NCBI RefSeq assembly: GCF_902713615.1
Contig: NC_052162.1
Coordinates: forward strand, 112,495,811 to 112,559,810
DNA from: Scyliorhinus canicula
Lineage: Eukaryota
DNA: 64,000 nt
Direction of reading: 5' to 3'
Shown: positions 7,063-10,000 of the stretch, in pieces
How positions within the stretch are numbered: the first letter of the stretch is position 1
How the letters are laid out: every line of letters begins with the position of its first letter
Program-made: the position numbers and the translations under genes
The notes under the pieces: model-generated
The model's input: only the letters and a program-made list of their open reading frames with translations
The model's database searches: none
What the model was told of the DNA's origin: nothing

Positions 7063-10000
7063 TGTGGTAGTAACCACTGCTGTATATATTAGGGTATGTA
7101 TGGTAAGGCCCTGTACTACAGGTACGGGGGTAGTCCCTGCCTGCTGGCTCCACCCAGTAGGCGGAGTATAAATATGTGTGCTCCCCGTCCAGCACCCATT
7201 TCGCCAGCAGCTGTATGAGGCCACACATCTTAGTATAATAAAGCCTCAGTTATATTCAGCTCTCGTCTTTGTGTAATTGATCGTGCATCAATTCATTACA
7301 CTAAAGTTTTCAGAAAATGGACCTCCGCATCAAGCCGGATCGCCTGCAGCTGGATCCGCAATCACCAACGCCAAAAAGGACTTTGAACACTGGCTAGCTT
7401 GTTTCGAAGCTTACATCAGGTCTGCACCAGACCCAATTCCGGAAGCTCAGAAGATCCAGATACTCTACTAGCGGCTGAGCTCCAACGTATTTCCGCTTAT
7501 CCAGGACGCGCCGATCTGCGATGAAGCCATGGCGCTACTGAGAATTACGCTCAGCGGACTAACACGCTTTACGCCAGGCACGTCCTCTCAACTCGTAGTC
7601 AACTCCCTGGTGAGTCAATAGAAGATTTCTGGCCTGCCCTAATTCCCCTGTGGCTGTGGCTGTCAAGCTGTCACAGCCACGACTCGAATTTACTCATGCG
7701 GGACGCTTTAGTTATGGGGATTGTGTCAGATCACATCCGCCAGCGACTTTTAGAGGGGGCCACGCCCGACCTCACGGCAACCAAAAAGCGGGCGCTATCG
7801 ATGACAGTCGCCTCGCGCAATATCCAGGCCTACACTTTCCTGTGCCACCCGCCAACCAGCCAACCCCGGGGGCCCCAGATGTTACTTCTGTGGGCAGTCA
7901 AAACACCCCCACCAACGCTGCCCAGCCTGGAGCGCCCTTTGCAAGGCCTGTGGTGTGCCATGGACAGTGGACGCCGACATCTCTCCCCCCCCCCCCCCCC
8001 CCCCCCCCCGCGGGCCACGCACGGCCAGTGGCCGCCACCATCTTCCCATCCCCAGGCCACGTGCGGCCCATGAGCGTCGCCATCTTGTTCAACCCCCCGC
8101 CATGGGCGTCGCCATCTTGTCCTCCTGAGGATCGTCAGGCGCCGCTATCTTGTCTCCCCCACAGCATGTGGGCTGGTACGGGCTGCGGGCCACTTTCCTG
8201 TACCTAGACAATTGTTCCAGGACCCGTGCTCCCCGGGCATCCCATTGTCTGACACCAGCGACGGCCAGCCGCGGCTCGCCTCGGTCACGATCGACCAGTC
8301 TCGCCCACACAATCTAGCCACCGCCTGCACAAGCGTGAAGATCGATGGGCACGAGATCTCCTGTCTGCTGGACTCCGGGAGCACCGAGAGCTTCATACAT
8401 CCCGATACGGTAAGGCGCTACTCCCTCGCGGTACACCCCGCCAATCAGAGAATCTCCCTGGCCTCCGGGTACCACTCCGTGGTGATCCGGGGGTACTGTA
8501 TAGCCATGCTCACGGTCCAGGGCGTAGAGTTCAGCGGCTTCCGCCTCTACGTCCTCCCCAACCTCTGCACTGCCCTGCTACTCGGCTTGGACTTCCAGTG
8601 TAACCTCCAGAGCCAAACATTGAAATTCGGTGGGCCCCTACCACCCCTTACTGTGTGCAGCCTCGCTACCCTAAAGGTCGACCCACCTTCCCTGTTAGCA
8701 AACCTAACCCCGGATTGCAAACCCGTCACCACCAGGAGCAGACGGTACAGCACCCAGGACAAGGCCTTCATCAGGTCCGAGGTCCAGCAGCTGCTTCGGG
8801 AAGGCATCATTGAGGCCAGCAACAACCCCTGGAGAGCCCAAGTGGTTGTGGTGAAAACGGGGGAGAAACACAGAATGGTCGTGGACTAGAGCCAGATTAT
8901 CAATCGGTACACGCAGCTCGACACGTACCCCCTCCCACGTATATCTAATATGGTCAATCAGATTGCACAGTACTGGGTCTTCTCAACTGTTGACCTAAAA
9001 TCCGCCTGCCACCAGCTCCCCATTCATAAGGCGGACCGCCCATACACTGCCTTCGAGGCAGACGGCCGCCTCTACTATTTTCTTAGGGTTCCCTTCGGCG
9101 TCACCAACGGGGTCTCGGTCTTCCAACGGGAGATGGACCGAATGGTCGACTGGTACGGACTGCGGGCCACTTTCCCGTACCTAGACAATGTCACCATCTG
9201 CGGCCACGACCAGCAGGACCATGATGCCAACCTTGACATATTTCTCCACATCGCCACTCTCCTAAACCTCACTTATAACAAGGAGAAGTGCGTATTCAGC
9301 ACAAACTGCTTAGCCATCCTCGGCTATGTGGTCCAGAATGGAGTTCTGGGGCCCGACCCCGACCGCATGCGCCCCCTCATGGAATTCCCCCTTCCCCACT
9401 GCCCCAAGGCCCTCAAACGTTGCCTGGGGTTCTTTTCTTACTACGCCCAGTGGGTTCCAAATTATGCGGACAAGGCCCGCCCACTCATCCAGTCCACCCT
9501 TTTACCCCTGGTGGCCGAGGCTCAACAGGCCTTCAACCGTATTAGGGCCGACATCGCCAAGGCCGCGATGCACGCAGTTGACGAGACGTTACCCTTTCAA
9601 GTGGAGAGCGATGCATCAGATGTCGCTCTAGCCGCCACCCTCAACCAGGCAGGCAGGCCCGTGGCATTCTTTTCCCGCACCCTCTATGCTTCTGAAATTC
9701 GGCATTCCTCCGTGAAAAAGAGGCCCAGGCCATCGTTGAAGCTGTGCAGCATTGGAGGCATTACCTGGCCAACAGGAGATTCATTCTCCTCACTGACCAA
9801 CGGTCGGTAGCCTTCATGTTCAATAACACACAGCGAGGCAAGATCAAAAATGATAAGATCTTGAGGTGGAGGATCGAGCTCTCCACCTACAACTACGAGA
9901 TTTTGTATAGCCCAGTAAGCTCAACGAGCCCCCCGATGCCCTATCCCGAGGTACATGTGCCAGTGTACAGGTGGACCGACTCCGGGCCCTGCACGACAGC

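Follow-up and report, generated by a model that had tools for sequence, protein, structure and literature searches.

The question raised by this locus is how a Gypsy retrotransposon whose 5′ long terminal repeat (LTR) is not followed by a tRNA-type primer-binding site (PBS) primes its reverse transcription. The element lies on the forward strand of the window, by which we mean the whole stretch of 64,000 nucleotides analysed here (Scyliorhinus canicula, contig NC_052162.1); all positions and features given below are those of this strand. It is a decayed copy of ~4.3 kb (7063–11384) with the hallmarks of Ty3/Gypsy elements, namely LTRs with TG...CA ends, a target site duplication (TSD), and a polypurine tract ahead of the 3′ LTR. 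The 5′ LTR (7063–7290) and the 3′ LTR (11157–11384) are both 228 bp long and have 14 differences (93.9% identity). They are flanked by the 5-bp TSD ACCTC, with the left copy at 7058–7062 and the right copy, with the same letters, at 11385–11389. A 5-bp TSD was also found in five of the six other two-LTR copies recovered from 20 fetched. The polypurine tract (11141–11156) is followed by AA before the 3′ LTR. The broken gag-pol region (7317–11056) begins 26 nt past the 5′ LTR and encodes Gag, CCHC, protease, reverse transcriptase (RT) with YLDN, RNase H, and integrase, with no env and no chromodomain. Pfam domains were identified for protease, RT, RNase H, and integrase, in the Ty3/Gypsy order. 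Compared with its relatives, which have a single open reading frame (ORF), the region carries six frame changes and is interrupted by three in-frame stops.

Other features are located elsewhere in the window. A short tandem array with a GC-rich unit of ~20 nt lies upstream of the element (6620–6735). An intronless, degraded gene for a 60S acidic ribosomal P protein (6078–6395; PF00428, E = 3.9e-19) is followed by an A-rich stretch and is likely a processed pseudogene. Two arrays with an 84-nt period, which is typical of C2H2 zinc-finger exons, are mutually inverted (19444–20546 and 56417–57388), and a short relic of an 84-nt-period array is present at 5376–5520. The tRNA-Tyr called by ARAGORN at 21933–22009 overlaps a dispersed repeat family (D18) and is probably the head of a tRNA-derived SINE.

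The first base after the 5′ LTR (7291) is unpaired in the window copy, and the PBS position (7292–7304) directly after it contains no TGG. The sequence at this position matches the reverse complement of a segment of the 3′ LTR (11324–11336) at 12 of 13 nucleotides and that of the corresponding segment of the 5′ LTR (7230–7242) at 11 of 13. The 5′ segment ends with AATAAA (7237–7242). The original prediction had described a complement of the element's own LTR in place of a TGG-type PBS, with a 12/13 match to the 3′ LTR, one extra mismatch to the 5′ LTR, and an overlap with AATAAA. All of these points were borne out by recomputation, although its coordinates were one base off. When the 228-nt LTR was shuffled 20,000 times, a match of at least 12 occurred at a frequency of 5e-5 and a match of at least 11 at 0.003. 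The 30 closest copies in the genome pair at 13/13 (14 copies), 12/13 (11 copies), or 11/13 (5 copies), and 21 of the 30 carry one identical 14-mer after the LTR. Because 14 of these copies pair perfectly, the mismatches in the window copy are attributed to decay of this single copy. In folding predictions, the window copy with its two mismatches does not form the duplex, while its sister copy L002 does.

To follow the complementarity across the lineage, families were gathered from the same genome and from metagenome and MAG contigs. The Gag start was located, and the LTR end was called with a junction rule that is blind to pairing. A Gag-start match was obtained for 181 of 228 loci, and 177 of them had sufficient upstream DNA. 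After removal of 21 duplicate loci and of two loci without a rule-called junction (L020 and L065), 154 were kept and grouped into 34 sequence clusters. The first member of the cluster pairs with its own LTR at 12/13 or better in 24 of the 34 clusters, and at 13/13 in 17 of them. When PBSs and LTRs were swapped between clusters, only 10 of 1,122 control pairs reached at least 12/13 and none reached 13/13. The 13-mers taken from four other offsets gave 0/34, 0/34, 0/34, and 0/26 at the same threshold. There are exceptions: the first member falls below 12/13 in 10 of the 34 clusters, and five clusters have no member with at least 12 matches, two of them with a loosely defined junction. For ten metagenome loci, the LTR end was fixed by an LTR pair and a TSD; nine of these pair at 13/13 and one at 12/13. 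In one locus (L064:170–256), the LTR end and PBS are present twice in tandem ahead of the Gag start. Contigs from eight bacterial MAG records (L131–L138) carry eukaryote-type retrotransposons of this kind, which is likely host contamination of the assemblies.

The pairing has been kept through many two-sided changes. Thirty distinct perfectly paired 13-mers occur among 64 loci, and the dogfish genome alone contains 15 different perfectly paired 12-mers. In nine hand-picked families, two-sided changes were observed at 8 of the 13 pairs, and the covariation score was 0.60, compared with 0.17 after shuffling. The single-step compensatory changes include eight transversions and six transitions, a mixture that would not be favoured by G-U intermediates alone. 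Conservation with covariation among relatives had been named as a check of the original prediction, and the outcome is positive. The match might be suspected to have arisen by chance in A/T-rich sequence, or to be a single-copy artefact, since the motif is A/T-rich and the window copy has only 11/13 matches with its 5′ LTR. This can hardly be the explanation, given the shuffled LTRs, the swap and offset controls, the covariation score, the sister copies, and the TSD-fixed loci. From these sequence comparisons, the complementarity is most likely functional; it is real, conserved, and clade-wide.

A canonical tRNA site in the relatives was sought as a possible refutation, and TGG within 5 nt of the junction was found in 0 of the 154 loci, so that none has a tRNA-type PBS. 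A tRNA fragment or another small RNA of the host could still act as the primer, with the LTR match being secondary, and priming by half-tRNAs is known from copia lineages (PMC6317226). Covariation largely refutes this, because each of the 30 perfect 13-mers follows its own LTR, which a fixed host RNA cannot do. Moreover, an Rfam scan of six loci gave no match. A host RNA primer is thus very improbable.

The lineage itself is widespread. Among 7,945 candidates, 658 related proteins were found at E ≤1e-40, and they are encoded by single ORFs of ~1,200 aa. The named relatives are from sharks, rays, the nematodes Trichuris and Trichinella, a sea anemone, a damselfly, and a sea cucumber. The RT motif is YLDN in 69 of the 120 relatives listed. 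The dogfish genome contains ~34,000–41,000 Gag candidates at first look. No chromodomain was detected in any of 14 scanned relatives (E up to 0.01) or in the integrase of the window copy, in agreement with the earlier assignment as an apparent non-chromovirus. In the PDB, the best solved match is Ty3 Gag-Pol and the remainder are more distant RTs. A search of a protein atlas returned generic Gag clusters only, and no relative was found in a viral contig collection. The flanking Gypsy RTs within the loci carried no clade name. Cigr-1 of Ciona intestinalis has LTRs of ~245 bp and one ORF of ~1,210 codons. The present lineage resembles these values in size and in its single ORF. The Cigr-1 clade occurs in tunicates and molluscs (PMC6238403).

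The duplex has a fixed register. The pairing at each position was tabulated for the best member of each of the 29 clusters with at least 12 matches. In this table, which leans toward pairing because best members were used (the first-member and TSD-fixed counts do not lean), position 1 after the LTR is paired in 0/29 clusters, and positions 3–13 are paired in 29/29. The duplex begins at position 2 in 28 of the 29 clusters, is 12–18 bp long, and closes a loop of 20–65 nt. GCC or ACC directly follows the segment in 24 of the 29, and the first 4 nt of the loop are able to pair inside U5 in 21 of the 29, compared with 6.4 expected from shuffles. In the window, the loop (7243–7290) begins with this RCC (7243 on), the predicted first arm of a second stem. 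The segment ends with ATTAAA in 13 clusters and with AATAAA in 10 (23/29); neither hexamer is present in the other six. In L051, an AATAAA lies apart from the duplex, 26 nt downstream, and the distant locus L065 has 12 consecutive paired nucleotides with no hexamer in the duplex.

The promoter was predicted from the spacing of sequence motifs. In the same genome, 12 of the 14 clusters have a TATA-like word that precedes the segment by 56–64 nt, and its spacing places the predicted start ~32 nt upstream of the segment; among the 15 metagenome or MAG clusters, no such word was found within 100 nt. In the window, the putative TATA box is at 7167–7174 and an initiator-like word at 7196–7202, with the start predicted at ~7198, which is 31 nt past the first TATA base. 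When four raw RNA runs, none of them listed as certain to contain RNA, were compared with L002 and with the 3′ LTR region of L229, neither read starts nor read ends accumulated at any of the predicted sites (start, cut, and poly(A)). The reads were of low depth, from many families and both strands, and those on the L229 region fell mostly on a flanking repeat. In one run, 19 reads extend beyond the LTR end and reach the PBS and gag, which shows RNA, of whatever origin, past the 5′ poly(A) signal.

The duplex might serve to mask the 5′ poly(A) signal for read-through and do nothing more, with another primer used for reverse transcription. The presence of A(A/T)TAAA within the duplex in most clusters agrees with this reading, as do the folding predictions for L002, in which the unpaired probability of AATAAA is 0.00–0.05 in the 5′ context and 0.98–0.99 without the leader. 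The AATAAA of the 3′ LTR copy in the window is likewise predicted to be unpaired. The folding energy of the L002 leader (z = −1.28) is not evidence alone. In addition, suppression of the signal is required in retroviruses that carry it in R, and for HIV-1 a stem-loop has been proposed (PMC12789967). However, the duplex is kept without a hexamer in six clusters and in L065. It also fills the sole place where a primer could bind, and masking gives no reason for a start exactly one base past the LTR end. Such a start is needed by a primer, since the primer sets the end of the cDNA. A primer rather than a mere mask is therefore favoured by the constant position next to the LTR end and by those members whose duplex contains no A(A/T)TAAA, and masking as the only role is improbable. 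Since six of the 29 well-paired clusters lack the hexamer there, hiding the 5′ signal cannot be the whole function; in our model it is likely a second benefit.

The window element is a decayed copy from a widespread Gypsy lineage with a single ORF, in which the PBS is complementary to a 13–18-nt segment of the element's own LTR. We consider it likely that elements of this lineage prime reverse transcription from their own RNA and not from a tRNA. The original prediction had left the choice between self-priming, masking, or both; self-priming is the best reading of the sequences, and masking is retained as a folding prediction for families in which the duplex contains the signal. Starting from the observed complementarity, covariation, register, and lack of TGG, we infer the following steps. 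Transcription would start ~30 nt past the TATA box. The segment (7230–7242 in the window), predicted as the primer from pairing and covariation, would fold onto the PBS over the 20–65-nt loop, concealing the A(A/T)TAAA of the 5′ LTR but not that of the 3′ LTR, which would help read-through. The RNA would be cleaved at the 3′ border of the duplex, after the hexamer (after 7242 in the window) and before the conserved RCC that opens the second stem, probably by the RNase H of the element, as in Tf1. The freed 3′-OH would then prime minus-strand DNA across U5 back to the cut. The short stretch from the hexamer to the poly(A) site would act as R in the first jump, and the loop in the window would accordingly comprise a predicted working R, from the cut to the poly(A) site, and U5. 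This R stretch must be present at the 3′ end of the RNA, which would explain why the primer does not extend past the poly(A) signal. Finally, when the primer is copied into plus-strand DNA, the LTR segment would serve to rewrite the PBS, so that the two stay matched. In Tf1, the primer is reported to be copied into cDNA (PMC11042837), and such copying would couple the PBS to the LTR.

Self-priming from the 5′ segment faces a difficulty. With the start predicted ~32 nt ahead of the segment, a capped fragment of ~45 nt would have to act as the primer. In the model, this primer would be longer than the PBS, and plus-strand synthesis would run past the PBS if it were not stopped or the primer not trimmed. 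A long capped primer would be spared if the copy of the segment in the 3′ LTR (12/13 in the window) were the primer. In that case, the RNA would be cut at its 3′ end, after the hexamer, and would circularise by pairing with the PBS, with R provided by the region between the start and the segment. Covariation of sequences cannot separate the two copies of the segment. However, the 5′ copy is just 20–65 nt from the PBS, and local pairing is predicted. Moreover, strong-stop DNA primed from the 3′ copy would end at the predicted start, whereas a recurrent deletion ends at the cut instead. We therefore regard priming by the 3′ copy as unlikely.

This deletion was found in a young sister family, in which LTR pairs are 98–100% identical and which gave 902 intact LTR hits (794 + 108). 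Seven insertions have lost 60 bp from their LTRs, both LTRs being affected in six of them and a solo LTR in one (13 LTRs). All seven have 5-bp TSDs, and the six two-LTR insertions retain the PBS. The deletion lies between two copies of a 9-nt repeat, the first located just past the TATA box and the second straddling the predicted cut, and each of the 13 shortened LTRs recovered with these anchors has this junction. The deleted copies form two sub-lineages with no allele common to all; therefore, the deletion arose at least twice during reverse transcription. A 9-nt internal repeat with copies 72 nt apart served as a control and showed no deletion beside 304 undeleted copies (6/304 against 0/304, p ~0.03, with rough denominators). 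No deletion was found at an 8-nt LTR repeat. Two controls are few, the denominators are approximate, and slippage rates vary by site, so the support is modest that the deletion is the product expected from a mis-aimed first jump if strong-stop DNA ends at the cut. It could alternatively be ordinary RT slippage across a hairpin predicted to fold between the repeats. Some deleted copies may descend from others, since L231 and L281 are nearly identical and L280 and L284 share an allele that is absent from 18 intact copies; if so, they multiplied without their own primer segment. In L231, which has the deletion in both LTRs, the base adjacent to the junction differs between the two, and both alleles occur in intact copies. 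This suggests that two templates were used in one reverse transcription. A very young sister family, comprising L229 (G000:C2:106613034–106618313) and its relatives, has at least 40 copies with identical LTR and leader. It carries variable tandem repeats with 48-nt and ~105-nt units between gag and pol, which extend the ORF to ~1,500 codons.

Our literature search, which covered few subscription journals and not Repbase Reports, found no account of self-priming in this lineage. Self-priming has been described in the Tf1/sushi chromoviruses, and for one copia lineage of plants it has been predicted (PMC6317226). If the self-priming proposed here is true, a large animal Gypsy lineage without a chromodomain and with an internal primer would represent a further, probably independent solution that is tied to 3′-end processing. 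Such elements would be independent of host tRNA and may thereby escape silencing by tRNA fragments at the PBS. Annotation tools that demand a tRNA PBS would overlook such elements or judge them wrongly. Exact RNA and cDNA ends are predicted by the model, and the recurrent deletion would be a genome-only read-out of the strong-stop DNA end. More tentatively, and with confidence somewhat short of even, we suggest that this abundant, animal-wide lineage evolved tRNA-independent priming separately from Tf1/sushi. One duplex would hide the 5′ signal, yield an internal capped primer by a cut after the signal, and set a very short R, and copying of the primer would rewrite the PBS in each cycle and drive the covariation.

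The nearest known systems are Tf1 and Tf2 of Schizosaccharomyces pombe, Tj1 of S. japonicus, and the Tf1/sushi group with plant Tcn1, for which self-priming is predicted. These are likewise Ty3/Gypsy elements with no tRNA PBS, in which the PBS is complementary to the 5′ LTR of the element and a cut at the duplex end would free the primer (PMC7175516, PMC4600332, PMC6317226). As in the Tf1/sushi group, the PBS of the present lineage is complementary to its own 5′ LTR and starts 0–5 nt from the LTR end. The comparison with Tf1 in the original prediction holds for this pairing and has to be qualified for the position of the segment, which is predicted ~32 nt downstream of the start and not at the 5′ end of the RNA. 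The primer of Tf1 consists of the first 11 bases, and RNase H cuts between bases 11 and 12 (PMC7175516); the capped fragment predicted here would not be of this kind. In contrast to Tf1/sushi, this lineage has no chromodomain, its RT motif is mostly YLDN, and its primer is predicted to be internal. The lineage is not filed in the Tf1/sushi group, because the chromodomain is absent and the primer is predicted to be internal, which set it apart.

Outside the chromoviruses, self-priming has also been predicted from PBS-LTR complementarity for the TAR lineage of plant Ty1/copia elements (Houba, Osr-1; PMC6317226). TAR elements differ in belonging to another superfamily and another kingdom; self-priming thus arose more than once. 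A different parallel is the suppression of the 5′ poly(A) signal in retroviruses, by the HIV-1 polyA hairpin or by U1-based means, where the signal in R is likewise present at both ends and occlusion at the 5′ end is needed (PMC12789967). In the present lineage, however, the masking strand lies outside the LTR, in the PBS slot, and the duplex therefore exists at the 5′ end only.
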